Below, one piece after another: positions 15,360 to 60,184 of a stretch of 64,000 nt of DNA. Each line of letters starts with the position of its first letter. Position 1 is the first letter of the stretch. The notes below the pieces were generated by a model. It was not told the origin of the DNA, ran no database searches, and saw only the letters and a list, made by a program, of their open reading frames with translations. The stretch comes from an uncultured Candidatus Rokubacteria bacterium. Lineage in GTDB: Bacteria > Methylomirabilota > Methylomirabilia > Rokubacteriales > DASRDR01. The stretch lies in NCBI GenBank assembly GCA_963708025.1, contig CAVPSB010000049.1:64001-128000 (forward strand), read 5' to 3'. Made by a program: the position numbers and the translations under genes.

Positions 15360-15444
15360 TGCGCCCTCCTTAATCTGTCGGAGTGAAACGTCCCGACCTC
15401 GGATCTCTGCTCTCGGCACAGGGCGCCGACGCCCGCCTCCTCCT

Positions 15445-23301: not shown

Positions 23302-23369
23302 GGTGCTGACACCAGCCTAGGCCGCGAGCGCACGGAAAGGCAAGGGATTCGCGGCCGGTCGGCCGCCGG

Positions 23370-24240: not shown

Positions 24241-24262
24241 CGGCCCCAGACGTCGAGCCGGA

Positions 24263-25980: not shown

Positions 25981-25982
25981 GG

Positions 25983-31086: not shown

Positions 31087-31233
31087 GTTGGACGGCCGTC
31101 GGCCTGTGGGCCGCGGCTCGAAGTGGAACGCCGCGGCCGCGCGGCCGAGAACCAGCGGGTTGCGAGAATCCAATGGGCAGAGGAAATCGGACTGGCCGGC
31201 CTTCCTGCATCCTCACTCGCTGAGGGGGATCGG

Positions 31234-32722
31234 GTGAATCTGGCCACGCTCGGCGAGGAGAGTCTCCGGCGGTACGGCGAGTACCCGGCGCTCGTCTTCG
31301 AGGGCCGGGAGCTGACGAACGTCGACCAGCAGCGGGCGGCCAATCGGCTCGCCCACGCCCTCGGCCGGCTCGGCGTCGCTCCGGGCGACCGCGTCGTGGT
31401 GATGCTGCCGAACTGTCCCGAGGTGCTGGAGGCCTACCGCGCCATCCTCGAGATCGGGGCCGTGGTGGTGCCGGTGATCTTCCTCCTGAGCCCGGAGGAG
31501 GTCCGCCACATCCTCGCCCACGCCGAGGCCCGCCTCCTGATCACCTCGCCCGACCTCGCCGGGAAGGCCGAGGGGTGGCCCGGCGCCCGGATCCTGGTGG
31601 GCGGCGAGGCGGCCGGCGCGCCGGCGTACGAGGAGCTGGTGGCCCGGGAGTCCGACGCGTTCACCGCGATCGACCGCGACGACCACGACCTGGCCGTGAT
31701 CCTGTACACCGCGGGAACCACCGGGCAGCCCAAGGGCGTGGCGCTCTCCCACGCGAACCTCGCCTCGAACGCGCGCGCCGCCGCCAGCGTGTACGAGCTG
31801 GACCGCCGCCAGTGGGCCCTGGCCGCCCTCCCGCTGTCCCACTCGTACGGGCTCACCCTGATGAACGCGGGGAACGTCCTCGGCACCCGGGCCGTCCTGC
31901 TCCGCTGGTTCACCCCGGAGGCCGTCCTCACCGCCATCCAGCAGTACCGCGTGCAGGCCATGTCCGGCGTGCCGACCATGTTCGTGTACCTGCTGAACTA
32001 CCCGGACGCCGAGCCGCTTCGACACCTCGTCGATGCGCGTGTGGGGCTCGGGGGCGGCGCCCTTGCCGGTCGAGCTGGTGGAGCCGTTCGAGACGAGGTT
32101 CGGCGGCCGGCTCCTCGAAGGGTACGGGCTGACCGAGGCCTCCCCCGTCGTCGCCACCCATCGCTACTCGGGCGTCCGGAAGCTCGGGTCGGTCGGCCAG
32201 CCGCTGCCCGGGGTCGAGGTGCGGATCCTCGACGACGCGGACCGCGCCCTGCCGATCGGCGAAGCCGGTGAGATCGGCGTCCGGGGCCCCAACGTGATGC
32301 TCGGCTACTACCGGATGGCGGAGGAGACTGCCGGCACCCTCCGGAACGGCTGGCTCCACACCGGCGACGTGGGACGCCTCGACGACGACGGCTTCCTCTA
32401 CATCCTGGAAAGGAAGAAGGACCTCATCATCCGCGGCGGGCTGAACGTGTACCCCCGCGAAGTCGAGGACGTGCTCTACGCCCACCCCGGGGTGGCCGAG
32501 GCCGCCGTGGTCGGCATGCCCGATCCTCTCATGGGCGAGGAGGGATGCGCGTTCGTCGTCTTGCGCGCCGGCGCCACCGCGACCCCCGAGGCGTTGATCG
32601 CCTTCTGCCAGGAACGCCTGGCCAAGTTCAAGTGCCCGAAGCAGGTGCGCTTCGTCGAGGCGCTCCCGAAGAGTCCGATCGGCAAGATCCTGCGCAAGCA
32701 GCTCCGGACTCTCGTCACCTGA
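31234..32722 (+). CDS. Long-chain acyl-CoA synthetase (AMP-binding); frameshift near 32013
   Basis: YTAGTTGQPKG, EGYGLTE, GWLHTGD, R.KDLIIRGG.NVYP.EVE, PKSPIGKI. Confidence 0.9.
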
Positions 32723-45545: not shown

Positions 45546-45593
45546 GTCTCGCTCCTACCTCTGCTCCGAATGAAGGCGGATGACGTCCGCCAC

Positions 45594-46491
45594 CTACAGG
45601 AGCCCCGCCGTGGCCAGGATCTCCGTGATCTCCTCGATCGCGTCCCCGTCGGGAACGGGCAGCGGCATGCGGGGCAGACCGCCGTAGTACCCCAGGAGAT
45701 CCTGGGCGGCCTTCAGGCCCCCGATCCCGTACCGCCCGCTGATGCCGGTCGCCAGCGGGCTCAGCCGGTAGACGATCTCGCGCGCCTCGCCCCACTGGCC
45801 GGCCCGGGCCAGGCGCCAGATCTCGCAGCACTCGCGGGGCGCCACGTTGGCCACCGCCAGGATCCCGCCGGCCGCGCCCAGCAGGAGCGCCGGCAGGAAG
45901 GCGATCGGCGAGCCGACCAGGACCTGGAACGTCTTCGGGGTCAGCCGCATCATCTCGGCCGCCTGGGGAACGTTGCCCGAGCTGTCCTTGATCCCGCGGA
46001 TGTTCGGGTGCTCGGCCAGCCTGGCGACGAGGTCGGGCTCCAGGTTGATCCCGGTGTTGGCCGGGAAGTTGTAGAGGAGCACCGGGACCGGCGAGGCGTC
46101 CGCGACCGCCCGGTAGTGCCGGATGAGGGCCGGCGGCTTCATCATCCCCTTGTAGTAGCTCGGGGTGATGATGATCACCGCGTCCGCCCCCAGCTCGGCC
46201 GCGCGGCGGGACAGCCGGATCGCGGCGCCGGTCGAACTCTCCCCCGGTGCCCGCGACCAGCTGCCGGGACCGCGGGATCTCGGCCCGGGCCGTCGCGATG
46301 ACCCGCTCCTTTTCGGCCTCGGAGAGGAGCGGGAACTCGCCGGTCGAGCCCAGCACCACGTAGCCGGCCAGCGGGTACTCGTCGAGACGGCGAAGGTTCG
46401 CGGCCAGCTTGTCGTGGGCCACGTGGTCGTCGCGGAAGGGGGTCAGGACCGGGGGATAGACACCCTCGAAGCTCGGCGCTCGGCTATCCAT
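45594..46491 (-). CDS. DapA-family aldolase, 4-hydroxy-2-oxoglutarate aldolase-like; frameshift near 46237
   Basis: PPVLTPF, GSTGE, TPSYY, LYN.P.NTG, GIKDSSG Schiff-base Lys, YGIGGLKAA. Confidence 0.85.
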
Positions 46492-49312
46492 GGGCGCCCC
46501 GCTCCTTGATGCGGGCCTGGGCCGCTGCCAGCCGGGCGGTCGGGATCTGATACGGGGAGCACGAAACGTACGTCATACCCGCCCGGTGACAGAACTCCAC
46601 GGAAGACGGCTCGCCTCCGTGCTCACCGCAGATCCCGACCTTCAGATCGGGCCGTGTGCGCCGCCCGCGCTCGATGCCGATCCGGACCAGCTCGCCGACG
46701 CCCTCCTGGTCGAGGACCCGGAACGGATCGCGTGGCAACAGCTCCTTCTCCAGATAGAGCGGGAGGAACTTGCCCACGTCGTCGCGACTGTAGCCGTAGG
46801 TCAGCTGGGTGAGATCGTTGGTCCCGAACGAGAAGAAGGCCGCCTCGTGGGCGATCTGGTCGGCGACCAGGACCGCCCGCGGCACCTCGATCATCGTCCC
46901 GGTGGTATACGGGACCCGCACCCCCGTCTCGGCGAGGACCGCCTCGGCCGTCCGCTCGGTCAACTCCCGCGTCAATCGCATCTCGCCCACCGTGCCCGTC
47001 AGCGGGATCATGACCTCGGGCTCCACCGGAACGCCCTGCGTCACGAGCGCGGCGGCCGCCTCGAAGATGGCCCGGACCTGCATCTCGTAGATCTCGGGGT
47101 AGGTGATGCCCATCCGGCAGCCCCGGTTCCCGAGCATCGGATTGGCCTCCTGGAGGCTCCGCACGCTGACCAGATCCTCCTTCAGCTCATCGATCCGCGT
47201 CTGCACACGCGCCAGCTCGGTCTCGAGTGGAGCCCTGGCCATGACGCGCTGGAAGCCGGGGTCCAGCGCGAGCTGCGTCCGGACGCTCTGGTCAACGTGC
47301 TCCAGCCCGGGGCGCCGCTCCCGCAGGTCGCCCAGCTCTTCCAGCAGCTTGGCCTCCTTGGGCAGGAACTCGTGGAGGGGCGGATCCAGCAGGCGGATCG
47401 TCACCGGACGCCCGGCCATCGTCCGGAAGATGCCGACGAAGTCCTCGCGCTGCATCGGGAGGAGCTGGTCGAGCGCCCGCTGCCGGGTCTCCCGGTCCCG
47501 GGCCTGGATCATGTTGCGGACGATGGGAATCCGCTCCTCCGGCTTGAAGAACATGTGCTCGGTGCGACAGAGGCCGATCCCCTGGGCGCCGAAAGCCAGC
47601 GCGGTGGCCGAGTCGCCCGGCGTGTCCGCGTTGGCCCGCACCCCGAGGGTCCGCACCTCGTCCGCCCAACCGAGGATCGTGCTCCAGTAGCCGAAGAGCG
47701 GCGATTCCTCGGGCCGGAGCGACTTGGTGAGCTGGACCTGCACGATCTCCGACGGCTTGGTCGGCAGCTCGCCCAGGATCACCTCGCCGGTTTCGCCGTC
47801 GAGGGCGATCACGTCCCCCTGGCGGACCCGGAGGTCCCCGCGACGAAACTCGTGCGCCTCCTCGTCCACCGTGATGTCACCACAGCCGACCACGCAGCAT
47901 TTCCCCATGCCGCGACCAACGACCGCCGCGTGGGAGGTGAGGCCGCCTCGTGACGTCAGGATGCCGCCGGCCGCATACATCCCGGCCACGTCCTCCGGCG
48001 AGGTCTCGGCCCGGACCAGGATCACCTTCACGCCGCGGTCCGCCCACTCCTCGGCGTCGTCGGCCGTGAAGACGACCTTGCCGACGCAGGCCCCGGGGGC
48101 GGCCGGGAGACCCTTCGCGATCAGCCGCCCGCCCTCGATGGCACGAGCCTTGGCCTTGAGGTCGAAGCCGGGGTGCAGGAGCTGGTCGAGTTGCCCAGGG
48201 TCGACCCTCAGCAGGGCCAGGTCCCGATCGATCAGCCCTTCTTTCACCATCTCCACGGCGATCCGCACCGCGGCCGCCGCCGTCCGCTTCCCGCGCCGGG
48301 TCTGCAGGATGTACAGCGTCCCTTCCTGGATCGTGAACTCGATGTCGAGCATGTCCCGGTAGTGGCGCTCGAGCGTCTGGTACGTCGCCTCCAGCTCCTG
48401 GTACACGCCCGGCATCCGGTCACGCAGGTTGGCGATCGGCTGGGGGGTCCGGATGCCGGCCACCACGTCCTCGCCCTGCGCGTTGACCAGGAACTCGCCG
48501 AAGAACCGCCGCTCCCCGGTCGAGGGATCCCGGGTGAACGCGACGCCGGTCCCCGAACTGTCCCCGAGATTGCCGAAGACCATCGTCTGGACGGTGACCG
48601 CGGTCCCCCAGTCGTTCGGGATTCCGTGGATCCGGCGGTAGTCCTCGGCCTTCTTCGAGAACCAGGAGCCAAAGACCGCGCGAATCGCCAGGTTGAGCTG
48701 CAGCTGCGGCTCTTGCGGGAAGGGCTCGCCGGCCTCCTCGTAGAGGCCCTTGTAGGCGGAGACGAGCCCGCGCAGCGCAGGCGCTGGCAGCTCGGCGTCG
48801 GACGCGGCTCCCATTCGCACCTTCGCCGCGTCGAGCAGGTCGTCGAAGAGACGGCGGTTGATCCCGAGGACGACGTCGCCGAACATCGTGAGGAAGCGGC
48901 GATAGCAGTCCCAGGCGAAGCGCTCGTTTCCGGTCCGCTGGGCGAGCCCCTCGACGGTCTTGTCGTTCAGGCCGAGGTTCAGGACCGTTTCCATCATGCC
49001 CGGCATCGAGACCCGCGCGCCGGAACGGACGGAAACGAGGAGCGGGCGGTCGGGATCGCCGAGCCGGAGGCCGACCAGACTCTCGAGGCGTCCGAGATGC
49101 TCCTGCACCTCGTCCCACAGGCCGTCGGGGTCGCGACGTCCGAGGCGCTCGTACTCCGTCCACGCCTCGGTCGTGATGGTGAGCCCGGGCGGGACCCGGA
49201 TTCCCAGGTTCGTCATCTCGGCCAGCTCGCACCCCTTGCCGCCGAGGAGGTTCCTGAGCTGGCTCGAACCTTCGGCCCGCCCGCCTCCGAAAAAGTAGAC
49301 AAGCTTCCTCAT
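46484..49312 (-). CDS. ppdK: Pyruvate, phosphate dikinase
   Basis: LLGGKG, LLVSVRSGA..SMPGMM, NAQGEDVVAG, GGLTSHAAVV, GIGLCRTEHMF, GTMIE.PRA, SFGTNDLTQ, GICGEHGG. Confidence 0.97.
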   Translation of the reverse strand: MRKLVYFFGGGRAEGSSQLRNLLGGKGCELAEMTNLGIRVPPGLTITTEAWTEYERLGRRDPDGLWDEVQEHLGRLESLVGLRLGDPDRPLLVSVRSGARVSMPGMMETVLNLGLNDKTVEGLAQRTGNERFAWDCYRRFLTMFGDVVLGINRRLFDDLLDAAKVRMGAASDAELPAPALRGLVSAYKGLYEEAGEPFPQEPQLQLNLAIRAVFGSWFSKKAEDYRRIHGIPNDWGTAVTVQTMVFGNLGDSSGTGVAFTRDPSTGERRFFGEFLVNAQGEDVVAGIRTPQPIANLRDRMPGVYQELEATYQTLERHYRDMLDIEFTIQEGTLYILQTRRGKRTAAAAVRIAVEMVKEGLIDRDLALLRVDPGQLDQLLHPGFDLKAKARAIEGGRLIAKGLPAAPGACVGKVVFTADDAEEWADRGVKVILVRAETSPEDVAGMYAAGGILTSRGGLTSHAAVVGRGMGKCCVVGCGDITVDEEAHEFRRGDLRVRQGDVIALDGETGEVILGELPTKPSEIVQVQLTKSLRPEESPLFGYWSTILGWADEVRTLGVRANADTPGDSATALAFGAQGIGLCRTEHMFFKPEERIPIVRNMIQARDRETRQRALDQLLPMQREDFVGIFRTMAGRPVTIRLLDPPLHEFLPKEAKLLEELGDLRERRPGLEHVDQSVRTQLALDPGFQRVMARAPLETELARVQTRIDELKEDLVSVRSLQEANPMLGNRGCRMGITYPEIYEMQVRAIFEAAAALVTQGVPVEPEVMIPLTGTVGEMRLTRELTERTAEAVLAETGVRVPYTTGTMIEVPRAVLVADQIAHEAAFFSFGTNDLTQLTYGYSRDDVGKFLPLYLEKELLPRDPFRVLDQEGVGELVRIGIERGRRTRPDLKVGICGEHGGEPSSVEFCHRAGMTYVSCSPYQIPTARLAAAQARIKERGAHG

Positions 49313-49352
49313 GGTCTCGGCTCTCCACCCAGATTGGCAGAAAAGTCTTTCC

Positions 49353-49382
49353 AACGTATCAGTTAAGGCGCTGTTCTGTCAA
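49353..49382 (-). promoter_or_regulatory. Probable sigma-70 promoter of ppdK
   Basis: Minus strand TTGACA-18-TACGTT with upstream TG, in an AT-richer patch. Confidence 0.45.
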
Positions 49383-49574
49383 GGCAAAGCCGGTTCTACG
49401 GTGCCCGCTGAACCAGTCCGACGAGTAGGGAGACCGAGGCGAGGCGCGACGGCTCGAGGGCGAGCCGATCCGGCGGCTCCCATTCCCACCGCCCGTCGGC
49501 TTCTCGCAACCCTCGGGCTCTGGCCACGCGGCCGTGGCGTTCCGCTCCGCGCCCCGGCCCAAAGGCCGAAAAAT

Positions 49575-49623
49575 AGTCGCGGCCTCCGAGGGGGGACTCG
49601 TGGGCGTCTTCCAAGACCCCCCG
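49575..49623. repeat. Family 2 palindromic repeat copy (inverted)
   Basis: Reverse complement matches 31037-31086. Confidence 0.75.
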
Positions 49624-49629
49624 ATGTTC

Positions 49630-50424
49630 TCAGCGCGGGGGCCGGGGACGGCGGGAGCGGCGCGCTCGCGACGAGACCGGGGCCTCGTCGCCCCGGGCTT
49701 CGCCCTCCACGCCCTCGACCGGCGTCTCGCGTCCGACGACGAGCTGCTCGACGGCGATCAGATGCGCGAGCATGGCCCGCCGCGCGGCTTCCTCGTCACG
49801 GGCCTGAATGGCGGCGAGGACTTGCCGGTGATCCTGGTGGGAGCGCTCCGGCCGGCCGGGGATGTGGAGCGATTCCTCTCGCGTCTGGGTGAGCAGGTCC
49901 ATGAGGGCCGTCACGATGCGGGTGATCGCCCGGTTGTGGGCGGAGTGGGCGATGGCGGTGTGGAACGCGGCGTCCTGTGCCAGCCCCGTCCGGCCCGCCG
50001 CGATCTCCCGGGCCTGCTCGTCCAGGATGCGTCCCAGCTCGAGCGCCTCCTCGTGGGTCGCCCGGCGCGCCGCCAGCCCGGCGATGGGCGGCTCCAGGAG
50101 GCGCCGCGCCTCGTAGAGGTCGGCGATCCCCTCACGCTGGTTCAGGATGACCAGGGCCAGCGGCTCGACGAGCGATTCGACCGAGATGCTGCGGACGAAG
50201 GCTCCCTCGCCGGCCCGGATCTCGACCAGCCCGGTGCTCTCCAGCGCCCGCAAGGCTTCCCGGACCGACGTCCGGCTCACCCGGAAGCGCTCGGCGAGGT
50301 CGCGCTCGGGCGGGAGGCGATCGCCCGACTTGAGCTGACCGTCGGCGATCAGGCCGCGGATCTGCCGGACGATCTCCGCGTAGATGCGGGTGGACTTGAC
50401 GGGCTCGACGCTCGGCCAGCTCAT
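49630..50424 (-). CDS. GntR/FadR-family transcriptional regulator (FCD domain; GlcC/LldR/PdhR-like)
   Basis: GDRLPPERDLAE.F.VSR.SVREAL..L...GL...G.G.F; D.AFH..IA..A.N; H..I..AI..RD...A...M..HL. Confidence 0.93.
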   Translation of the reverse strand: MSWPSVEPVKSTRIYAEIVRQIRGLIADGQLKSGDRLPPERDLAERFRVSRTSVREALRALESTGLVEIRAGEGAFVRSISVESLVEPLALVILNQREGIADLYEARRLLEPPIAGLAARRATHEEALELGRILDEQAREIAAGRTGLAQDAAFHTAIAHSAHNRAITRIVTALMDLLTQTREESLHIPGRPERSHQDHRQVLAAIQARDEEAARRAMLAHLIAVEQLVVGRETPVEGVEGEARGDEAPVSSRARRSRRPRPPR

Positions 50425-50475
50425 GACGTGAGGGAGTATACCGGCGCCGGCCGGCGCGGCGCAAACGCGGCCGGG

Positions 50476-51189
50476 CTACTTCCGCGACGCGGCCGGACGA
50501 TGGCGAGCCGCCGTTCGCCGGGCGACCCACAGGCGCCCGGCGAGGACCACCGCGACCCCGAGGGTGGCCGGGAGCACCCAGTGCAGGGCGTCGGCCGCCC
50601 CCTCGCCCATCCAGCGCCGGAGGACGTGGTCCTTGAGGATCATCTCGCCGGCCACCCAGCCGAGGATCCCGGCGCCCAGGTCCACGATCCAGGTGAACCG
50701 GCCCATCAGCCGGGCGAGGATACCGCTGCCCCAGATCACGATCGGGATCGAGAGCCCGACTCCGAAGACGACGAGCAGCATGTCGCCGTGGGCGGCGGCG
50801 GCGACGGCCAGGACGTTGTCCAGGCTCATGATCACGTCGGCCACGATGATGATCCAGATGGCCTCGAACAGTGAGGTCCCGTGGCGCACGGTGTGGTCAC
50901 CGGCCTCCTGGGTGACCAGCTTCACCGCGATCCAGAGCAGCAGCCCGCCCCCCACCGCCTGGAGGAGCGGAATCCGCAGCAGGAACGTGATGATGCCGAT
51001 GAACAGGATCCGGAGGGCCACGGCGCCGAAGGTGCCCCAGAGGCGGCCCTGCCATTGCTGGCGCTTCGGCAGGTTCCGGACGGCGAGCGCGATGACCAGC
51101 GCGTTGTCGCCGGCCAGCGTGAGGTCGAGGATGACGATGGCGATCCAGCGGGCCCAGAACTCGGGGTCGGCCAGCTCGGCGAAGTTCAT
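50476..51189 (-). CDS. TerC/YjbE-family membrane protein
   Basis: DL.LAGDNA.VIALA, ADVIMSLDNVLAVAAAA, G...SIP. Confidence 0.9.
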   Translation of the reverse strand: MNFAELADPEFWARWIAIVILDLTLAGDNALVIALAVRNLPKRQQWQGRLWGTFGAVALRILFIGIITFLLRIPLLQAVGGGLLLWIAVKLVTQEAGDHTVRHGTSLFEAIWIIIVADVIMSLDNVLAVAAAAHGDMLLVVFGVGLSIPIVIWGSGILARLMGRFTWIVDLGAGILGWVAGEMILKDHVLRRWMGEGAADALHWVLPATLGVAVVLAGRLWVARRTAARHRPAASRK

Positions 51190-51301
51190 CGGGCTACGCC
51201 GGGCCAACGCGTGACACGTTCACGGCGACGGGGCCGGCTCGGCGGACGGGGTGGCGGCACGCCCCGATGATCGGCATGCCGCGCCACCGGAGGGCTCCGC
51301 C

Positions 51302-52828
51302 TCAATGTCGTTCGGAGGAGACGACGGACCCCGGCAGGGCCCGGAGCCGGCGCACCACCGGCCCCAGCACGGGCAGCGCGAACAGCACGAGCGCCACCAG
51401 GGTGATGGCGGCCGAGATCGGGCTCTGAAAGAAGATGAGCAGCGAGCCCTGCGACATGATCAGGCTCTGACGGAGCGCGCTCTCGGCCAGGTCGCCGAGG
51501 ACGAGGGCCAGGACCAGCGGCGCCAGCGGGTAGTCGAGCTTCTTGAACACGTAGCCCAGCAGGCCGAAGCCGAGCATGTACCAGACGTCGAGCATGCTGT
51601 TGCTCACCGCGTAGGCCCCGATCGCGCACACGAAGACGATGAGCGGCGTCAGGATCGCGAACGGCAGCCTCAGGATGGCGGCGAAGGCGGGGACGAAGGC
51701 CAGGACCATCACCACGCCGATGACGTTGCCCGTGTACATGCTGGCGATGAGGCCCCAGACGAAGTCCGGCTTCTCGATGAAGAGCATGGGCCCCGGCTGG
51801 AGACCCCAGATCAGGAGCCCCCCGAGCATGACGGCCGCCGTCGGCGAGCCCGGGATGCCGAGCGTGATCATCGGGAGCATGGCCGCCACGCCGGCCGCGT
51901 GGGCGGCCGTCTCGGGGGCGACCACCCCTTCCAGCACGCCGGTCCCGAACTTCTCGGGGTGCCGGGAGAACCTCCGGGCGAAGCCGTAGCTCATGAACGA
52001 GGCCGGGGTGGCGCCGCCCGGCTTGAAGCCCATCCAGAACCCGATCAGCGCGCTCCGGAGGAACGTCTTCCAGTAGCCCGCCAGCTCGCGCCACGTCTTC
52101 AGCATCTCGCGGAACCGGACCCGCGGCGTGATGCCCCGGAACTCGAGCCCCTCCTCGACGGTCAGGAGGATCTCACCCAGCCCGAAGAGGCCGATGACCG
52201 CGACGATGAACGAGAAGCCCCGCATCAGCTCGATGGAGCCGAAGGTCATCCGCAGCTTGCCGGTCACGACGTCGAGCCCGACCGCCGCCAGGATGAAGCC
52301 GATGAGGATCGAGACGAGGGACTTCACGGGGTTCCCGCCACCCAGCCCGATGAAGCTGGAGAAGGTCAGGAGCTGGATGGCGAAGAACTCGGGCGGGCCG
52401 AACTTGAGGGCCAGCTCGGCCAGCGGCAGGGCGAAGAACGAGACCAGGACGATGGCGAACGCCGCGCCCACGAACGAGGACGTGAAGGCCGCGGTGAGGG
52501 CCTCGCCCCCCCGGCCCTGCTTGGCCAGCGGGTAGCCGTCGAGCGTGGTGGCCACCGACCACGGCTCGCCCGGGATGTTGAACAGGATCGAGGTGATCGC
52601 CCCGCCGAAGAGGGCGCCCCAGTAGATGCAGGTCAGCAGGATGATCGCCGAGGTAGGGGGCATCGTGAAGGTCAGGGGCAGCAGGATGGCCACGCCGTTG
52701 GCGCCGCCCAGCCCCGGGAGCACGCCGATGATCGTGCCGAGAGTGATCCCGATCACCGCCATCAGGAGGTTGAACGGGGTGATCGCGATCTGAAAGCCGA
52801 GGAGGAGGTGCTCGATGCCCCCCATCAC
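51302..52828 (-). CDS. tctA: Tripartite tricarboxylate transporter large membrane subunit
   Basis: G.LPGLG, FGGAITSIL.NIPG, FGPPE.F, APETA..A, TLGIPGS, G.QPGP. Confidence 0.95.
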   Translation of the reverse strand: MMGGIEHLLLGFQIAITPFNLLMAVIGITLGTIIGVLPGLGGANGVAILLPLTFTMPPTSAIILLTCIYWGALFGGAITSILFNIPGEPWSVATTLDGYPLAKQGRGGEALTAAFTSSFVGAAFAIVLVSFFALPLAELALKFGPPEFFAIQLLTFSSFIGLGGGNPVKSLVSILIGFILAAVGLDVVTGKLRMTFGSIELMRGFSFIVAVIGLFGLGEILLTVEEGLEFRGITPRVRFREMLKTWRELAGYWKTFLRSALIGFWMGFKPGGATPASFMSYGFARRFSRHPEKFGTGVLEGVVAPETAAHAAGVAAMLPMITLGIPGSPTAAVMLGGLLIWGLQPGPMLFIEKPDFVWGLIASMYTGNVIGVVMVLAFVPAFAAILRLPFAILTPLIVFVCAIGAYAVSNSMLDVWYMLGFGLLGYVFKKLDYPLAPLVLALVLGDLAESALRQSLIMSQGSLLIFFQSPISAAITLVALVLFALPVLGPVVRRLRALPGSVVSSERH

Positions 52829-52881
52829 GCCCCAGTTCCCGCGCCCTTCCGGGAAGCGGGGACAGAACCAGGATCAGCCAC

Positions 52882-53355
52882 TCAGTATCCGAAATAGGCT
52901 TCGAGGGGGCCCTTGGGCATCGGCACCAGGAACCACACCTCGAAGATCAGAAAGGTGACAACGGGGATCCCAACGCTCAGGAGGATAATCAGGCCCCAGG
53001 AGTGCCGCCCGAGCCAGCGCATGTAGGCGGCCAGGTAGAGCCCTCCGGCGACGTAGAGCCCGAGGGGATACACCAGCAGCACCATGCCCGCCGCCGGCAG
53101 CGCAACCTTGGCCACCGGCGCCAGCTGACCCGGCGCCAGGAACGGCTTCCGGTAGAGGGGGAGGTCGGGCTGGAGCGCCGCCTGCCCCAGGACGACGGCG
53201 GAGGAAAGCCCGAGGCCCAGGCCGAGGTAGAACACGAAGAAGCCCGACTGGGGGCCGTCCGTGCTCCAGCCGATCCCCAGACGCAGCCCTTCGGCGATGA
53301 CCACGATCGCCCCGGCGAGCAGGACGATCGCGCAGACGACGTCAGCCCGGCGCAT
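52882..53355 (-). CDS. tctB: Tripartite tricarboxylate transporter small membrane subunit
   Basis: GP.SGFF, four TMs, FEVWF.VPMPKG; between tctC and tctA. Confidence 0.88.
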   Translation of the reverse strand: MRRADVVCAIVLLAGAIVVIAEGLRLGIGWSTDGPQSGFFVFYLGLGLGLSSAVVLGQAALQPDLPLYRKPFLAPGQLAPVAKVALPAAGMVLLVYPLGLYVAGGLYLAAYMRWLGRHSWGLIILLSVGIPVVTFLIFEVWFLVPMPKGPLEAYFGY

Positions 53356-53394
53356 GATGACTCGGACCGCTTCGCTCTCGCCGCCGGCGGGCGG

Positions 53395-54375
53395 CTACTT
53401 GAGGAGCCCGCCCTTCGTCATCAACTCCCGGTGGAGCCCCTCGGCCCCTTCCAGCCACTGCACGAACTCCGGCCCCGTCTGCCAGGACGGCTTCAGCGCG
53501 CCCTGCTCGAGGTAGTCCTTGAACTCGGGAGTCTCGTAGACCTTCTTCAGCAGGCCCTGATAGAACGCCACCGCGTCGGGCGGCATCTTCGGGGCCCCGA
53601 AGATCCCGCGCAGCATCAGGTACTCGATGTTGGCCCCGAGCGCCTCCTTGACCGTCGGGACGTCACCCCATCCCTTGGCCGACAGCCGGTCGCCGTCGAA
53701 CACTGCCAGCGGCCGGACGCGATTCGCCTTCCAGTGTCCGGCGCACTCGATGGGGTTGTTCACCGTCGAATCGATGTGCTTCCCCACCAGGTTCGCGCAG
53801 ACCTCCCCGCCACCCTTGAAGGGGACGTAGATGAACTTGAGCCCGAGGGCCTGCTCGAGCTGGATCGTGATGATCTGGTCTTCCTGGGCGGTGCCGGTCC
53901 CCCCCATCTTGAACGTGCTGGCCTTGGCCTTCACCGCGTCAACGTACTCCTTGGCCGTCTTGTAGGGCGTCTCGGCGTTCACCCACAGGATGAACTCGTC
54001 CAGCGCGAGCCGGGCCACCGGGGTCAGGTCCTTCCAGTTGAACGGCACCCCGGTGTGGAGGGGCGTCGTGAAGAGGTTGGAGAGCGTGATGATGATGGTG
54101 TGGGCATCGCCCTCCTTGGCCTTGACGTGGATGAACCCTTCGGCTCCGGCGCCGCCCGGCTTGTTGACGACGATGAGCGGCCGCGGCGAGAGCTTGTACT
54201 TGTCGACGAGCGGCGCGATGATCCGCGCCATCTGGTCGGCGCCGCCGCCGGTGCCCGCCGGCACGATGAACTCGACCGGCTTCGTGGGCTCCCAAGCCAG
54301 GGCCGAGCCTCCGGCGACCGTGAGCCCGACACAGACGAGGAGCGCGATCCCGAGACAGAGCGCCACGTTGCGCAT
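53395..54375 (-). CDS. tctC: Tripartite tricarboxylate transporter periplasmic binding protein (Bug/TctC)
   Basis: Signal peptide; P.KPVEFIVPAGTGGGAD..AR, VVNKPGGAG, YVPFKGGG, VPT.KE. Confidence 0.93.
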   Translation of the reverse strand: MRNVALCLGIALLVCVGLTVAGGSALAWEPTKPVEFIVPAGTGGGADQMARIIAPLVDKYKLSPRPLIVVNKPGGAGAEGFIHVKAKEGDAHTIIITLSNLFTTPLHTGVPFNWKDLTPVARLALDEFILWVNAETPYKTAKEYVDAVKAKASTFKMGGTGTAQEDQIITIQLEQALGLKFIYVPFKGGGEVCANLVGKHIDSTVNNPIECAGHWKANRVRPLAVFDGDRLSAKGWGDVPTVKEALGANIEYLMLRGIFGAPKMPPDAVAFYQGLLKKVYETPEFKDYLEQGALKPSWQTGPEFVQWLEGAEGLHRELMTKGGLLK

Positions 54376-54470
54376 CGCGACACCTCCCGCGGTTGGCGCG
54401 GTTGGAGAGTGGAGGAAGGGGGAGAGTGTCCCCCTCCCTCGGGTAACCTCGGTCCCGCCGGAAAGTTCCC

Positions 54471-54565
54471 TCAGTTTGGGACCTCCCGCCCACCCCCCCA
54501 GCCCCCCTCCCCCACCCACCGGGGGGAGGGGGGAGCCGGAGGTCCCATTCCTTCACACACTCTCA
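54471..54565. repeat. Family 1 ~90-bp hairpin repeat, copy 2 (bounded by TCA/TGA)
   Basis: Matches 11010-11103; internal IR GGGACCTCC...GGAGGTCCC; right boundary is the stop codon of the beta subunit. Confidence 0.85.
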
Positions 54566-55579
54566 GTGCTTGCCCTCGACGTCCTTCCTGAAGGCGACGA
54601 CACCGGGCAGCTCCCACTTGTCCCACATCTCGTCGACCTTCCGCTGGAAGTAGACGAGGTCCTCCTCGATGAAGTGGGCGAAGCGGCCCTGCTTCAGGAG
54701 GTACTCCCGGGCCGGCTTGCGCGGGCGGCCCTCCACGATGGCCTTGGTCTTCCCGTAGTAGCGGACGACGCCGTCCTCCACCTCGTACAGGGGGAAGATG
54801 CCCGTCTCGATGGCCAGCTCGCCCAGCTCGTGGGAGAGCATCGGGTCGTAGTCCCAGCCCTTGGGGCACGGGTCGAGGGAGTGGATGAAGGTCGGGCCGC
54901 CGATGGTCAGCGCCTTGCGGACCTTGTTCATCATCTCGACCGCGTAGGACGCGCACACGGTGGCGACGTAGCGGCACTCCGGATGGCCGGCGGCCAGCAT
55001 GCCGGCCACGTTCTTCTTCCAGCGGGTGTGGATGAGCCGCTTGACCACGCCCGGGGGGCTGAAGGTCGTGTGAGCCCCGTACGGGGTGAGGCCGGACAGC
55101 TGGATGTCGGTGTTGGCGTACGACTCGTTGTCGTAGAGGAGGATCAGCGAGTTGTACTCCTTGTGGGTCAGGGTCGCGGAGATGGCGGCCAGGCCCATGT
55201 CGGCGCCGCCGCCGTCGCCGCAGAAGGCGATGACGTTGATGGGCTCGGTCTTCATCTTACCCTTGGACATGAGGGACTTGAGGCCGGCGGCGGTGCCGAG
55301 GGCCGCCGAGCCGGAGGAGCCGAGCTGCGTGTGCATCCAGGGCACCACCCAGGGGGTGGAGTAGTACGTCGTGTTGGCGACGTACATGCAGCCGGTCGAT
55401 CCCAGCACGATCGTCCGGGGGCCGGCCGCCTTGATCATCAGCTTCATGACCAGGGCCGACTCGCAGCCCTGGCAGGTCCGGTGACCCGAGCTGAAGTACT
55501 CCTCGAGCGTGACCTTCTTGACGCCCTTGAAGGGCTGGAGCACCTGGGTGGCGTTCGTGAACGTGGTTGTCTCGGCCAT
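54563..55579 (-). CDS. Oxalate oxidoreductase-like 2-oxoacid:ferredoxin oxidoreductase beta subunit (TPP-binding)
   Basis: GHRTCQGC, TGCMYVANT, GDGG...YDNESYANT.IQ, TPYGA.TTF.PPG, CPKGW. Confidence 0.9.
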   Translation of the reverse strand: MAETTTFTNATQVLQPFKGVKKVTLEEYFSSGHRTCQGCESALVMKLMIKAAGPRTIVLGSTGCMYVANTTYYSTPWVVPWMHTQLGSSGSAALGTAAGLKSLMSKGKMKTEPINVIAFCGDGGGADMGLAAISATLTHKEYNSLILLYDNESYANTDIQLSGLTPYGAHTTFSPPGVVKRLIHTRWKKNVAGMLAAGHPECRYVATVCASYAVEMMNKVRKALTIGGPTFIHSLDPCPKGWDYDPMLSHELGELAIETGIFPLYEVEDGVVRYYGKTKAIVEGRPRKPAREYLLKQGRFAHFIEEDLVYFQRKVDEMWDKWELPGVVAFRKDVEGKH

Positions 55580-55597
55580 CGCTGGTCTCCTTGTCCC

Positions 55598-56833
55598 CTA
55601 CTCGCGCACCCCGAGCCAGTGGGTCGGCTGGGCCGCCCGGCCGGCGTCGGCCGCCTTGAAACAGATGTCGGTCGCCTTGTACACGTCGTTCAGGGTGACT
55701 TCGCGGCCGCCCAGCCCGCAGATGAAGCCGATGAGCGGGGGTCGATGCTCGGCGTTGTAGAGCGTGGCCCGGACTTCGGTCGCGACGACCCCGGAGCCGA
55801 ACGGGGACCCGAACGAGTAGTCGCGGTCGATGACCCCGATCGCCTTCGCCTTGGCGAGCGCATGCGCGAGCTGACGATACGGGAACGGCCGGAACCAGCG
55901 GAGTCGGATCAGCCCGACCTTCTTGCCGTCGGCCCGCATCTTCCGGATCGCGACCTTGACGGGGAGGGACAGCGTCCCCATGCCGATGAGGATCACCTCG
56001 GCATCCTCCGTCATGTACTCCTCGAACCACGGATTCTCGGGCCCGCGGCCGAAGACGCGGCGGAAGTCGGCGTAGGCCTCCTCGATCACCGTGTAGGCGC
56101 GCTCGGTGGCCGCGTTGTTCTGCCGGCGGATCTCGATGACCCAGTCCTCGTTGACCTGGGGCGCCACCGTGATCGGGTTGTCGGGGTGGAGCTGGAGGTC
56201 GCCGCGGTTGTAGGCGGGCAGGAACTGGTCCACCCATTCCCGGGGTGGCACACGGGTCAGCGCCTGGGAGTGGGTGAGGAAGGCGCCGTCGGCCGAGATG
56301 GCGATGGGCAGGAAGACCCGCCGGTCCTCGGCCACCCGGTAGGCGATCAGGGTCGTGTCGAAGGCCTCCTGCGAGGTGTCGATCCAGCAGAGCAGCCACC
56401 CGAGGTCCCGGACGAACAGGGCGTCGTTGTGCTCCACGCCGAAGGCCCCGGGGTCGTCGAGGGCGCGGTTGCCGACAAGGGCCACCATCGGGATCCGCAG
56501 CGCCGGCGTCACCACCAGGCACTCCATCGCGTAGGCCCAGCCGACCCCGGAAGACCCGCAGAACACGCGAGCCCCGACGGCGGAGGCATGCTTGACGATC
56601 TCGAACTGGCTGTGCTCGCCCTCGGCGACGATGTACTCGGCCGTGAGCTTGCCGTTGGCGATCTTCTTGGCGATCGCCTGCATGACGGTGTCGTAAGGCC
56701 GGATCGGGTAGGCGGTGACGACGTCGATGTCGGCGAGCGTCAAGGCCTCGGCTACGGCCTCGCTGCCGGAGATCAGCATCTCCTTCTCTTCCAGGACCGC
56801 GGCGCCGGGCGCCGGGGTGGTCACGACTGCCAT
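55598..56833 (-). CDS. Oxalate oxidoreductase-like 2-oxoacid:ferredoxin oxidoreductase alpha subunit
   Basis: ISG..AVA, YPIRPY (not YPITP), EGEH.Q, GSSGVG, R.LD.PG.FG.EH.D, GLGG. Confidence 0.9.
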   Translation of the reverse strand: MAVVTTPAPGAAVLEEKEMLISGSEAVAEALTLADIDVVTAYPIRPYDTVMQAIAKKIANGKLTAEYIVAEGEHSQFEIVKHASAVGARVFCGSSGVGWAYAMECLVVTPALRIPMVALVGNRALDDPGAFGVEHNDALFVRDLGWLLCWIDTSQEAFDTTLIAYRVAEDRRVFLPIAISADGAFLTHSQALTRVPPREWVDQFLPAYNRGDLQLHPDNPITVAPQVNEDWVIEIRRQNNAATERAYTVIEEAYADFRRVFGRGPENPWFEEYMTEDAEVILIGMGTLSLPVKVAIRKMRADGKKVGLIRLRWFRPFPYRQLAHALAKAKAIGVIDRDYSFGSPFGSGVVATEVRATLYNAEHRPPLIGFICGLGGREVTLNDVYKATDICFKAADAGRAAQPTHWLGVRE

Positions 56834-56858
56834 CTGGATTCCTCCTCGGTCTGGCGAG

Positions 56859-58139
56859 CTATGCGCCCGGGGCTTCCGCGACGCCCGTGATGATCGACGT
56901 GGACGACTGGTGCATGTGGACCCCGGGCGGCAGCCCCTTCTCCGCCGCGTTCTCGCCCGGAATGCCCTCGGTGACCGGGAGGCCGCCCAGCTCCAGCGGG
57001 CCGCCCGCCAGCTCCTCCTCGTACTGTCCGCGGTACCGGAAGCCGTGAGAGCGGATGGTGTGGACCTTGTCCCGGCTCTTCTCCTGGAGCCAGACCCGGT
57101 AGGCATCCTTGTCCTTCCGCCACATCTCCCACTGGCTCGCGTTGTCCTCGAAGACCGCCTCGTTCACCATCGTGATGCAGTTGTGCACCGGGCAGACCGC
57201 CTCGCAGACGCCGCACCCGCAGCAGGACTCCATGTTGGCGTCGTAGAGCCCGTCGGGCATCACGTCGAAGCAGCTGTCCGGGCACTGGAGCCAGCAGAGC
57301 GTGCATTTCACGCAGGTCTCGAAGTCGATGACCGGCCGCATCGTGCGGCTGGAGAACTTCTTGAAAACCTGGCTCCGCTCCGGCCGGTACCCCTTGCCGC
57401 CCTCGATCGGCTTCCCGATCGGCAGCGACGGGATGGACACGCCCTCGCGCATCTCCCACCAGCGCGGCAGCTCGAAGGAGTAGGGGGTCTCTGGATTGCC
57501 CTCGGTGACCGGAACCGGCCGGCCCTCGATCCGCTCGTAGGCCTTGCTGGCGGATTCCACCTTCAGCTCGGACCCCCACTCGGCCTCCCGGATCGCCTGG
57601 CCCACCGCCTCGACGCTGAGGAACTGCGGGGCGATCTTCGCCAGGGCCCCCAGGAGCCGGACCTCCGTGTGGTCCTCCTTGTAGACCCACAGACCCGAGA
57701 ATGACGCCTTGCCCTGCAGGATCCACAGGTTGTAGACGGAGTCCTTCTTGTGGATGTCCCGGAGGAGGTCGGCCGGCCGCTGGGTCGAGATCACCAGCAG
57801 GTGGCCATTCGGGTGGAGCAGGCGGTTGATCGGCTGGAGGCCATACCAGGCCCAGGATTCCACCCCCTTGGCCAGGGTGTCGTCCACGCAGATGGTGACG
57901 TGGAGCTCCTTGGGCTCGTAGCGGGCCATGTGCTGCTCGAGCTCTTCCTTGGTATCGGCGACGATGGCGAAGTCCTTGGCCGGGACGCCGTTGCGCTGCG
58001 GGCTGTCCCCGTAGCGGCCGAAGGCGATGCCCCACCGCCCCGCCTTCCGGGCCGAGAGGACGATCCCCCGGGTGATGCGGGCCGCCAGGTTCTTCTGGAA
58101 GATCCCGCGGTAGACCACCTCACAGATCAAGTGCGCCAT
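56859..58139 (-). CDS. 2-oxoacid:ferredoxin oxidoreductase gamma-domain/2x[4Fe-4S] ferredoxin fusion (OOR delta-like)
   Basis: YGDSPQRNGVP.K.F gamma-domain motif; RTMRP..D...CVKCTLCWLQCPD and CCGCGVCEAVCP. Confidence 0.9.
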   Translation of the reverse strand: MAHLICEVVYRGIFQKNLAARITRGIVLSARKAGRWGIAFGRYGDSPQRNGVPAKDFAIVADTKEELEQHMARYEPKELHVTICVDDTLAKGVESWAWYGLQPINRLLHPNGHLLVISTQRPADLLRDIHKKDSVYNLWILQGKASFSGLWVYKEDHTEVRLLGALAKIAPQFLSVEAVGQAIREAEWGSELKVESASKAYERIEGRPVPVTEGNPETPYSFELPRWWEMREGVSIPSLPIGKPIEGGKGYRPERSQVFKKFSSRTMRPVIDFETCVKCTLCWLQCPDSCFDVMPDGLYDANMESCCGCGVCEAVCPVHNCITMVNEAVFEDNASQWEMWRKDKDAYRVWLQEKSRDKVHTIRSHGFRYRGQYEEELAGGPLELGGLPVTEGIPGENAAEKGLPPGVHMHQSSTSIITGVAEAPGA

Positions 58140-58202
58140 TCCGGGCCTCCTACCTCACCTCACCGGGACAGATTGCGAGCGCAGACCTCCGTCGAGGTAT
58201 GC

Positions 58203-58239
58203 TGGTCAGACCATAGGACAGCCCCGCCGATCCTGTCAA
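58203..58239 (-). promoter_or_regulatory. Sigma-70 promoter of the oxidoreductase operon with overlapping FadR-type operator
   Basis: Minus strand TTGACA-18-TATGGT; palindrome TGGTC-A-GACCA at 58203-58213 overlapping the -10. Confidence 0.7.
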
Positions 58240-58273
58240 GACCGACTTTGTCGGGCTCAATCCGGCCGCGGGG

Positions 58274-58672
58274 TTACCCCATCACGGCGACACGCTCCGG
58301 CTGGATCTTGTAGATCACCCGCACCTCGCCGGGGCGCCGGTACGGATACCGGTCCTGTCCGAGGTACTTCTTGGCCAGCGCGTCGATGTGGTCGTCGGCC
58401 CCCTGCTCGGTCATCTCCACCACGCGCCCTCGCACCGCGAGGTGCCGGTAGGGGTTGTCGGGGTCGAGGATCGCCAGCGCGACCTTCGGTGTCCGCCGCA
58501 TGTTGCGGTCCTTCACGCGGCCCTTCGCCGAGTTGATCCGGATGTGACTGCCGTCCCAGTCGAACCAGACCGGGGTCACCTGGGGGCTCCCGTCCGGCAT
58601 GACGGTGGCGAGGTTCGCGAAGGCCTTCTTCTGGAAGAGGTCCTTGAAGTTGTCTGGTACCGAGGCTGCCAT
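58274..58672 (-). CDS. PPOX-class (split-barrel) putative F420-dependent oxidoreductase
   Basis: A.LAT..PDGSPQVTPVW, GR.K.RN..R.P.VAL...DP.NPY..L..RG, ID.LA.KY.G...YP. Confidence 0.88.
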   Translation of the reverse strand: MAASVPDNFKDLFQKKAFANLATVMPDGSPQVTPVWFDWDGSHIRINSAKGRVKDRNMRRTPKVALAILDPDNPYRHLAVRGRVVEMTEQGADDHIDALAKKYLGQDRYPYRRPGEVRVIYKIQPERVAVMG

Positions 58673-58705
58673 CCATCCTCCTCTGGTTGTTCTCTGCTTG
58701 TTCGG

Positions 58706-58801
58706 GACGATCGAGACCTCCCGCCCACCCCCCCAGCCCCCCTCCCCCACCCACCGGGGGGGAGGGGGAGCCGGAGGACTCCATTCCTTGACACACGCTC
58801 A
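58706..58801. repeat. Family 1 ~90-bp hairpin repeat, copy 3
   Basis: Matches 54471-54565; abuts the TGA of the upstream PLP enzyme gene. Confidence 0.85.
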
Positions 58802-59995
58802 GTCTCCGGTGGCGCCGAGTGCGCTCTCGAGGGCTTCGCGCAGATCCTCTACATCTTCGATCCCCACCGACATCCGCACAAGCCCCGGGTCGATCCCGAG
58901 CTTGGCCTGCTCCTCGGCTGAGAGCGGGCGGTGGGAGGTCCGGCTCGGATAGCTCCAGGTCGTCGTCACATCCCCGAAGCTCGGCGCGAACTCGATGAGG
59001 CGAAGCGCTCGGAAGAAGCGCTCCACGGCCGGGGCGCCGCCCCGCAACTCGAAGGCCAGCATCCCGCCGAAGCCGGCCGGGAACAGCTTGGCGGCCAGGG
59101 CGTGCTGGGGATGCGTGGGGAGGCCCGGGTAGTGGACGCGGCGAACCTCGTCACGGCCGGCCAGGAATCGCGCCAGGGCGAGCGCGTTGGCGGAGTGCCG
59201 CTCCATCCGGAGGGCGAGCGTGCGCACGCCGCGGAGCGTGAGCCAGGCATCGAACGGGCCCAGGTTGAGCCCGATTCGAACCGCCTGGGCCCGGGCGCCG
59301 GCGATCAGTGGCGCCGATCCGGCCAGCACCCCGGCGGTGACGTCGCCGTGCCCGCTCAGGTACTTGGTCGCGCTGTGGTGCACCACCGCGGCGCCGTGCT
59401 CGATCGGTCGCAGGAGTGCTGGCGTGGAGAAAGTCGCGTCGACGAGGAGGTGGAGGCCCCGGCGGCGCGCCACCTCGGCCAGCCCCGGGAGATCGGCCAG
59501 TCGGAGCAGCGGGTTCGACACGGCCTCGACGAAGATCGCCCGCGTCGCCGGCGTCAGGGCCGCCTCCACGGCCGCCGCCTCCGAGCCGTCCGTGAACGAG
59601 ACCGCGATGCCCCAGCGGGGCGCCTGCTCGCGAAGGAGGGCCGTCGTCGAGCCGTAGAGGTCCCGCCCGGCCACCAGATGGTCGCCCGGCCCGAGCGTGG
59701 CCAGCAGCATCGCCGTCAGCGCGCCCATGCCGGACGCGGTCACCAGGGCGGCCTCGGCCTCCTCCAGCCCGGCCAGCGTCGCCTCCAGCATGGTGTGGTT
59801 CGGGGTGCCGAATCGCCCGTAGACGTAGCCGGGGCGCTGGCCTTCCCAGACCGCCTCCACCTCCGGGAGATTCTCGAACGTGTAGACGTTGGCGAGGTAG
59901 ATCGGCGGGGACAGCGGCCGCGATACCGACGCGGGGATGGGAACCGCCCGGGCGGCCCGCGTCGCGAAGCGCGCCCCTGACTTTTCCTTGGACAT
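58799..59995 (-). CDS. Cys/Met metabolism PLP-dependent enzyme (cystathionine gamma-synthase/methionine gamma-lyase family)
   Basis: Y.R.G.P, ASGM.A, E..SNP, VDATF, HSATKYLSGHGD, YPGL, SFGD, R.SVG.ED. Confidence 0.92.
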   Translation of the reverse strand: MSKEKSGARFATRAARAVPIPASVSRPLSPPIYLANVYTFENLPEVEAVWEGQRPGYVYGRFGTPNHTMLEATLAGLEEAEAALVTASGMGALTAMLLATLGPGDHLVAGRDLYGSTTALLREQAPRWGIAVSFTDGSEAAAVEAALTPATRAIFVEAVSNPLLRLADLPGLAEVARRRGLHLLVDATFSTPALLRPIEHGAAVVHHSATKYLSGHGDVTAGVLAGSAPLIAGARAQAVRIGLNLGPFDAWLTLRGVRTLALRMERHSANALALARFLAGRDEVRRVHYPGLPTHPQHALAAKLFPAGFGGMLAFELRGGAPAVERFFRALRLIEFAPSFGDVTTTWSYPSRTSHRPLSAEEQAKLGIDPGLVRMSVGIEDVEDLREALESALGATGD

Positions 59996-60184
59996 GAGTC
60001 TCTCCTTCGTGTCGCGATCGGTCACAGCCACTCAGTCGGGCCGGGGGGGAGCTACGCGCTCCTCCACCTCGCCGCGGCGCCTCGGTCCTGCGGCCCTCGG
60101 TGCGCCGCGTCCCTCCGGACGCCCCGGGCCCCCCCTCCGGGTTGCCCAATGCTCGGGCATCCCCGGCGATTCCCCCACAGCCAC

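Follow-up and report, generated by a model that had tools for sequence, protein, structure and literature searches.

The 64-kb window analysed here, a stretch of one contig from an uncultured Candidatus Rokubacteria bacterium, carries eight co-directional minus-strand genes (49630-58139) for a three-chain 2-oxoacid:ferredoxin oxidoreductase (OFOR), a tripartite tricarboxylate transporter (TTT), a TerC-family membrane protein and a FadR-subfamily regulator. We lean, with modest confidence, towards the view that these genes constitute an inducible system for the uptake and oxidation of oxalate, or of a very similar small dianionic C2 acid, built on a variant of oxalate oxidoreductase (OOR). This view derives from the membership of the enzyme in an OOR-family clade, the conservation of two key arginines, the occurrence of an orthologue of the binding protein TctC beside canonical OOR, the major facilitator superfamily (MFS) partners of related enzymes and the lack of Oxc and Frc matches above cut-off in the genome; oxalate as the substrate, independence of coenzyme A (CoA) and the ligand of TctC are suggested by gene context and by analogy with the OOR of Moorella thermoacetica. 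An earlier interpretation drawn from the DNA letters alone (hereafter, the sequence-only reading) had proposed the same gene set and order, which the Pfam match of each of the eight genes confirmed, and all the motifs it quoted (YPIRP and RALDDPGAFG in alpha; GHRTC, TGCMYVANT and YDNESYANT in beta) are present in the translations. The features are the following, with coordinates given as positions in the window:

58210-58239, minus strand: promoter-like site TTGACA-18-TATGGT upstream of gamma, with 58239 belonging to the -35 hexamer
58203-58213, no strand assigned: palindrome TGGTCAGACCA, which overlaps the -10 hexamer and may be the operator for the FCD/GntR regulator
56859-58139, minus strand: gamma-ferredoxin fusion, 426 amino acids (aa); OFOR gamma (domain III), 2x[4Fe-4S] ferredoxin domain (domain V) and conserved C-terminal extension; Pfam Fer4_21 at residues 270-324
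55598-56833, minus strand: alpha, 411 aa; OFOR domains I-II; Pfam POR_N and PFOR_II; YPIRP and loop NRALDDPGAFG
54563-55579, minus strand: beta, 338 aa; OFOR domain VI (thiamine pyrophosphate (TPP), proximal cluster); Pfam TPP_enzyme_C; YANTD vs YANTG of canonical OOR
54478-54547, minus strand: G/C-rich palindromic dispersed repeat in the beta-tctC spacer
53395-54375, minus strand: tctC, TctC-family periplasmic binding protein with a signal peptide; Pfam TctC 106.9 bits (cut-off 27)
52882-53355, minus strand: tctB, small membrane subunit; Pfam TctB 50.6 bits (cut-off 29.1)
51302-52828, minus strand: tctA, large membrane subunit; Pfam TctA 500.8 bits (cut-off 28.9)
50476-51207, minus strand: terC, membrane protein of the TerC family, YjbE subfamily, with a putative role in metal transport; Pfam TerC 161.1 bits; TIGR03717 211.9 vs cut-off 134.8
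49630-50424, minus strand: fadR, FadR-subfamily regulator; Pfam GntR 78 bits (N-terminal helix-turn-helix) and FCD 94.6 bits (C-terminal)

The three chains divide OFOR domains I-II, VI and III+V among themselves as in Moorella OOR (EC 1.2.7.10; structures 5C4I, 5EXD and 5EXE), which provides the best sequence or fold match for each of them. In HMMER comparisons with the PDB, alpha (analysed as 55598-56830, without the first Met) matched OOR alpha best (5c4i_A, 1.2e-97; 3.8e-63 for the next solved OFOR, the pyruvate:ferredoxin oxidoreductase (PFOR) of Methanosarcina acetivorans), and the same order was found for beta (5c4i_C, 2.9e-84; M. acetivorans PFOR next, 1.6e-57). The sequence match of gamma to 5c4i_B spans the ferredoxin part only (3.5e-18), and the Pfam POR domain, by which the gammas of canonical OORs are recognised, was not detected in its N-terminal 250 residues. 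A structure model (mean pLDDT, the model's per-residue confidence, 57) was therefore consulted, built from 10 gammas of the Ala type, as we call enzymes that have, like the present one, alanine at the position of Asp116 of OOR, the canonical enzymes being Asp-type. Its best fold match is the domain III+V chain of OOR (5exe_E, E 3.7e-13, ~335 columns), followed by PFOR and PorC chains, and the gamma-ferredoxin fusion is, on the strength of this predicted fold, genuine. Two CxxCxxCxxxCP motifs (eight Cys) and the stretch from ~328 to 375 are conserved in all 10 of these gammas, which exceed those of OOR by a conserved C-terminal extension of ~50-95 residues. The window enzyme also retains the TPP motif and the Cys motifs for three [4Fe-4S] clusters found in Moorella OOR. 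The two hallmarks that had led the sequence-only reading to Moorella OOR thus withstand closer comparison, the Arg of YPIRP aligning with Arg31 of 5c4i_A and the fusion matching 5exe_E in fold.

Among the matches listed, Arg in YPIxP is limited to a small group, and every other full-length alpha shown has Thr or Ser (alignment of 100 sequences of >=360 residues from the best 150 listed 50%-identity cluster representatives). A quick IQ-TREE search on 37 rows recovered a YPIRP clade (SH-aLRT, a branch-support test, 100) containing an Asp-type clade (99), with members from Thermanaeromonas, Actinomycetota, Acidobacteriota and two relatives of the window organism, and an Ala-type clade (99), which holds the window enzyme and is joined by a small Asn-type group (94). 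The enzyme hence lies in the sister clade of characterised OOR, not inside that clade. The phylogeny that had been suggested as a check places the enzyme in the YPIRP clade, and together with the PDB matches and the NCBIfam models, of which the OOR equivalogs (NF045790-NF045792) are the top match for all three chains, it bears out the assignment as OOR-like rather than PFOR or 2-oxoisovalerate oxidoreductase (VOR).

Alignment with 5c4i_A (HMMER) sets the OOR switch loop RTLDPPGDFG against RALDDPGAFG, with Ala129 of the window alpha in place of Asp116 and Asp126 in place of Pro113, and with Arg31 (of YPIRP) and Arg109 kept; the loop, the lost catalytic Asp and the new Asp three residues earlier had all been given correctly in the sequence-only reading. 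Published work on OOR assigns its anion site to Arg31 and Arg109 of alpha, describes oxalate as bound by Arg31 and has Arg31 and Asp116 take part in a bait-and-switch mechanism (PMC5020499); the CoA-site section of that paper offers no motif testable on gamma. YPIRPY and RALDDPGAFG are each found in 120/120 of the closest homologues; close homologues bear the taxon labels Candidatus Rokubacteria, Rokuibacteriota, Methylomirabilia or NC10. The same loop recurs in 20/20 Ala-type loci and, as R[AS]LDDPGAFG, in 13/13 further acidobacterial ones, so that Ala occupies position 116 in 33/33. A second exchange concerns beta, in which the Gly two residues past the active-site Asn (Gly145 and Asn143 of OOR beta, numbered by offset from the 5c4i_C alignment) is Asp, residue 158 of the window beta: YANTD is present in 19/19 and 13/13 Ala-type loci vs YANTG in 72/72 Asp-type loci.

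TctC, TctB and TctA all exceed their Pfam cut-offs and stand in the usual C-B-A order, as in the TctCBA systems for Salmonella citrate and of the Bordetella Bug proteins, from which the window system differs in its coupling to a TerC gene and an OOR-family enzyme, and in that solved TctC structures are only distant matches. The nearest, 4x9t_A (6.4e-33), is listed as 'Uncharacterized protein UPF0065', and none of these matches (E 6.4e-33 or weaker) is named for oxalate. The conservation of the oor-tct-terC-fadR order, another check suggested beforehand, was followed in 15 Rokubacteria-like loci (L021-L034 and L040; 14 with enough flank): tctC comes after beta in 15/15, and tctA, terC and fadR are present in 13/14, 9/14 and 14/14, respectively. 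In other families (L035, L038) fadR lies upstream of gamma, and in every Ala-type locus with enough flank it adjoins the OFOR genes on one side or the other. The sole close orthologue of the window TctC in genomes G184, G053 and G048 (61-68% identity; next paralogue <=39%) lies ~2 kb away from a canonical Asp-type OOR rather than next to the Ala-type genes of these genomes, and in G184 the Asp-type OOR is followed by tctC-tctB-tctA-terC. Accordingly, the TctC orthogroup, with TerC, travels with OOR-family enzymes of both types, which, along with the synteny among the relatives, upholds the view that the TTT genes belong to the system. Across the loci compared, TerC accompanied the TTT version of the module and no other; two neighbouring TerC matches in L032 (5629-6904; 65% and 52% identity) point to a tandem duplication or a frameshift. 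Members of the YjbE subfamily of TerC often lie behind a yybP-ykoY riboswitch, and no riboswitch or other Rfam match at E<=1 was obtained in 49000-59000, including the region before terC.

The only sigma-70-like site in 49200-58800 is TTGACA-18-TATGGT (mean for shuffled sequence, 0.5), and no other promoter-like site, nor any coding-strand terminator-like site between the genes, was detected in that interval. In the upstream regions of 14 aligned relatives, TTG of the -35 hexamer is invariant and ACA nearly so, and GGTC..ACCA of the palindrome TGGTCnGACCA is invariant (14/14). The palindrome has a single exact match in the 64-kb window, at 58203-58213. With its GT..AC core, it fits the operator of a FadR-subfamily protein, to which the regulator would bind. 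It is absent upstream of fadR in 16/17 Ala-type loci outside Rokubacteriales (a single near-match in L038), indicating that the operator sequence is lineage-specific. Contigs from RNA libraries (4 runs, 3 studies) matched gamma, alpha, beta and tctC 1591, 1569, 1864 and 68 times, respectively (203, 124, 149 and 5 at >=99% identity); with DNA carry-over possible, their depth cannot rank the genes and they prove neither transcription nor operon structure. The repeat between beta and tctC forms a hairpin in the computed fold, has a second copy at 58713-58755, in the stretch 58713-58790, and occurs in 102 genome copies at <=3 mismatches vs 0 with the reversed control. It has inserted locally and does not form part of the system.

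The Ala-type enzyme is widespread among relatives of the window organism, whose source assembly comprises 8.17 Mb in 49 contigs (completeness 99.67%, contamination 8.18%). A match at E<=1e-20 was found in 174/201 genomes of a phylum sample, which includes four unpublished genomes (G029, G058, G152, G047), and an Ala-type orthologue at >=67% identity in ~129/201, by a hand count of the listed rows. At the loose threshold (E<=1e-20), the two main families are covered at 16/16 (f1) and 107/125 (f2), and family f6 yielded weak matches only, except for a short, possibly mis-binned contig (G122/L040). A search of the window's genome found no canonical Asp-type OOR, which does occur in family f10. 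In one acidobacterial order, a YPIRP-family gene is present in 12/121 genomes, of which 11 have the Ala-type, 6 the Asp-type, 5 both and 4 two Ala-type copies. A wider contig scan returned at least 520 relatives. Of the 80 top-ranked ones, almost all are of the Asp-type and come from Acidobacteriota of soil, alongside some Actinomycetota, Bacillota and Eremiobacterota.

The genomic context is consistent with oxalate. As supposed in the sequence-only reading, the route would do without Frc and Oxc, neither of which was found above cut-off when the window's genome was searched; the window also holds no MFS protein of the oxalate/formate-antiporter kind. Acidobacterial Ala-type operons, in contrast, have the layout fadR-gamma-alpha-beta-MFS in 10/13 loci, and all 10 MFS proteins pass the TIGR04259 oxalate/formate antiporter cut-off (380-524 vs 335). 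Like the OxlT/Frc/Oxc pathway, whose OxlT model is thus matched above cut-off by the acidobacterial partners, the window system would combine oxalate uptake with breakdown, except that uptake would depend on a binding protein and breakdown would be oxidative, without CoA esters. Canonical OOR loci likewise have an FCD/GntR regulator nearby, but their transporters are of other kinds, with an LctP-family permease in Thermanaeromonas and, in Acidobacteria, an MFS protein above the oxalate/formate antiporter cut-off.

The acidobacterial and canonical loci have further features of their own. A gene for a CDC48-type double AAA ATPase, absent at the window operon, lies upstream of canonical Asp-type OOR in L099 (5265-9986), L036 (12234-15439) and L116 (6670-9965). 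In acidobacterial canonical OOR loci, a 610-aa GltD-like NAD(P)-binding Fe-S flavoprotein takes the place of the ferredoxin domain, a substitution that hints at an oxalate:NAD(P)+ enzyme. Immediately upstream of fadR, an AMP-forming ligase and a PanE-family reductase are encoded in L121 (3314-5819), L123 (11343-13834), L130 (3102-5584), L099 (1774-4265) and L075 (1740-4210); NCBIfam offers generic names only for both. By analogy with oxalyl-CoA synthetase and reductase, the latter described as PanE2 in Methylobacterium (PMC8411744), this pair could make glyoxylate from oxalate.

If the system works on oxalate, TctC would bind the acid in the periplasm and TctAB would import it, and the three-chain TPP/[4Fe-4S] enzyme would, to judge from homology and context, oxidise it to CO2, probably without CoA, the two electrons passing through the three clusters to a low-potential acceptor. 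The negative charge needed to drive out the second CO2 may come from Asp113 of alpha and the Asp of beta near the active-site Asn, in place of the mobile Asp116. The FCD/GntR protein would probably bind the palindrome at the -10 hexamer and keep transcription repressed as long as the acid or a product of it is absent. More speculatively, TerC may export a metal cation taken up as part of a metal-oxalate complex, an idea prompted by the part that TerC proteins are reported to play in exporting manganese and in metalation (PMC10550928) and by the restriction of TerC to the TTT version of the module.

Several observations weigh against oxalate as the substrate. All three subunits miss the OOR equivalog cut-offs (alpha, NF045791, 375.8 vs 500; beta, NF045792, 334.2 vs 590; gamma, scored by the delta model, 77.5 vs 230); of the controls, Thermanaeromonas locus L116 scores above each of the three and the Asp-type enzyme of G184 passes for alpha (564.9 vs 500) and beta (597.6 vs 590). 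Asp116, to which a part in the catalysis of OOR is attributed, is missing. These two points and the sister-clade position also set the window enzyme apart from Moorella OOR, and the earlier suspicion that it may be a variant was well founded. Both types coexist in single genomes (G184, G053 and G048, and 5/11 acidobacterial genomes with the Ala-type), which would be expected of paralogues with different jobs, and in G184 the TTT genes accompany the Asp-type rather than the Ala-type enzyme. Six of the 10 acidobacterial MFS proteins pass the cut-off for L-lactate MFS transporters (SfMCT) as well; the nearest NCBIfam models of the regulator (NanR, LldR, PdhR and GlcC, all below cut-off) make it resemble sensors of lactate, pyruvate and glycolate; pyruvate phosphate dikinase (PPDK) follows fadR in the window and in 8/14 related loci; and a literature search on TTT and oxalate, through titles and the starts of abstracts, found no link between TctC and oxalate.

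As Ala- and Asp-type enzymes occur together and their catalytic loops differ, the principal rival is that the Ala-type acts on another small acid tied to oxalate metabolism, such as glyoxylate, oxamate, mesoxalate or another dianionic 2-oxoacid, a proposal that we regard as possible though on balance unlikely. The loss of Asp116 would then reflect a chemistry without a second decarboxylation, and that acid would be the cargo of the TTT and OFA-type transporters. Such a division of labour agrees with the low equivalog scores, with the highly divergent gamma and its own C-terminal extension, and with the arrangement in L063, L075, L099 and L130, in which an Ala-type operon directly adjoins an Asp-type one and each has its own FCD regulator. 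It also agrees with the 46 alpha and 26 beta positions that are fixed differently between the types in a comparison with a mostly acidobacterial Asp-type set, several of them in or around the switch loop, and with the alignment of PFORs, which have Ile in the Asp116 column, before the loop Trp/Phe; this Ile presumably contacts the methyl group of pyruvate. Yet both arginines of the OOR anion site are kept, and the partners are those of canonical OOR, namely the same TctC orthogroup and MFS proteins above the oxalate/formate cut-off. Moreover, the Ala-type stands alone in most Rokubacteria-like genomes (one match in most rows), as it does without an Asp-type in the window's genome, indicating that it is not accessory to OOR.

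That the OFOR and tct-terC-fadR genes are neighbours by conserved order only, forming separate transcription units for unrelated substrates, seems to us quite improbable. A spacer of ~90-260 nt, which in the window contains the strong hairpin repeat, always separates beta from tctC, the G184 Ala-type operon lacks tct genes, and terC is missing in 5/14 loci; nevertheless, the TctC orthogroup sits beside an OOR-family operon in two arrangements and three families, no lineage has fadR parted from the OFOR genes, be it upstream or downstream of them, and the intergenic stretches are devoid of promoter- and coding-strand terminator-like sites, as reported above. A single RNA-library contig even joins the end of beta to the start of tctC, skipping the repeat, a weak link with just 25 letters on one side.

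The idea that the enzyme is an ordinary PFOR or pyruvate synthase working with the downstream PPDK, encouraged by that gene, by the database label 'pyruvate ferredoxin oxidoreductase alpha subunit' on homologues and by PorA and PorB as second-best NCBIfam matches, is very hard to sustain because the Thr of YPITP is Arg in 120/120 homologues, the enzyme falls inside the YPIRP clade, both matches remain below cut-off (PorA_Arch 332 vs 550; PorB 276 vs 405) and the genome has its own separate, full-length large PFOR (POR_N 279 bits, 1312-aa frame), and, besides, no PPDK is present at Ala-type loci in other families or in Acidobacteria. The four-subunit PFOR (PorABDG, M. acetivorans 9BT4), second-best PDB match, shares the superfamily and cofactor motifs with the window enzyme and differs from it in that Thr, in the loop Ile and in having gamma and delta as separate chains. 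Four-subunit PFOR depends on CoA, and Moorella OOR is reportedly inactivated by pyruvate, going by the title of Pierce et al. 2017.

Returning to oxalate, the observations can be combined into a more far-reaching proposal, which we advance tentatively and consider doubtful as a whole: the Ala-type would be a second, mechanistically distinct OOR class, in which the fixed Asp of beta and Asp113 of alpha replace the mobile Asp116, and, being near-universal in Rokubacteria-like genomes and common in Acidobacteria, it would be a main path of oxalate oxidation in soil, instead of the Moorella type or Oxc/Frc; in Rokubacteria, its substrate would arrive through a TTT that is the first known to carry oxalate and that imports metal-oxalate, with TerC returning the metal. 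Oxalate is a major carbon and metal-chelating compound that plants and fungi supply to soil, and the operon of this soil Rokubacterium may represent an overlooked route of its oxidation by soil bacteria. To our knowledge, surveys of oxalate degraders rely on oxc/frc or bicupin decarboxylases and usually omit OOR. One gut survey states that OOR was not considered (PMC8062136), and OOR is unmentioned in the one oxalotrophy survey and the one Rokubacteria-oxalate paper examined. Searches on OOR and Acidobacteria, TTT and oxalate, and Rokubacteria and oxalate, largely covering titles and the starts of abstracts and with the primary OOR papers outside their scope, found no paper describing the Ala-type clade. 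New here are the TTT-TerC coupling common to Ala-type and canonical OOR, the conserved operator, the acidobacterial fadR-OFOR-MFS layout and the co-occurrence figures for both types. Should the Ala-type indeed oxidise oxalate, oxalotrophy would have gone unrecognised in a large share of the uncultured Rokubacteria and Acidobacteria of soil, the 'pyruvate ferredoxin oxidoreductase' label would be wrong for thousands of genes, a natural variant would be available for testing the bait-and-switch mechanism of OOR, and an oxalate TTT with its TerC partner would assign ligands and roles to two transporter families that are very large and poorly understood.

Upstream of the operon (58274-60031) lie genes for an F420-dependent PPOX-class oxidoreductase (TIGR03618 121 bits vs cut-off 79) and a pyridoxal phosphate (PLP) enzyme of Cys/Met metabolism, which hold the same position in the four closest relatives (L021-L024). 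Since the second copy of the dispersed repeat, at 58713-58790, precedes the PPOX gene, the true start of the latter lies downstream of the listed start of its open reading frame (ORF). On the other side, a 330-aa ORF between PPDK and ilvB (45499-46491) has a weak N-terminal DHDPS/DapA-like match only. The gene for an AMP-binding ligase (31123-32704) is apparently split across two frames near 32000: its tblastn pieces, 31303-31995 and 32021-32704, are in differing frames and the joined stretch contains a stop codon, suggestive of a frameshift or an assembly error. Finally, the impression that the organism is a methylotroph fits the Fae, FTR, MCH and pyrroloquinoline quinone (PQQ) dehydrogenase genes of the window. 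The C1 gene set (1-29100) comprises MCH, FTR and Fae of the tetrahydromethanopterin (H4MPT) pathway with genes for cofactor synthesis and a sigma-54 activator, the PQQ-dependent dehydrogenase is encoded at 13575-15419, and a molybdopterin oxidoreductase gene with NrfD, FdhE-like and FdhD genes occupies 22516-29063.

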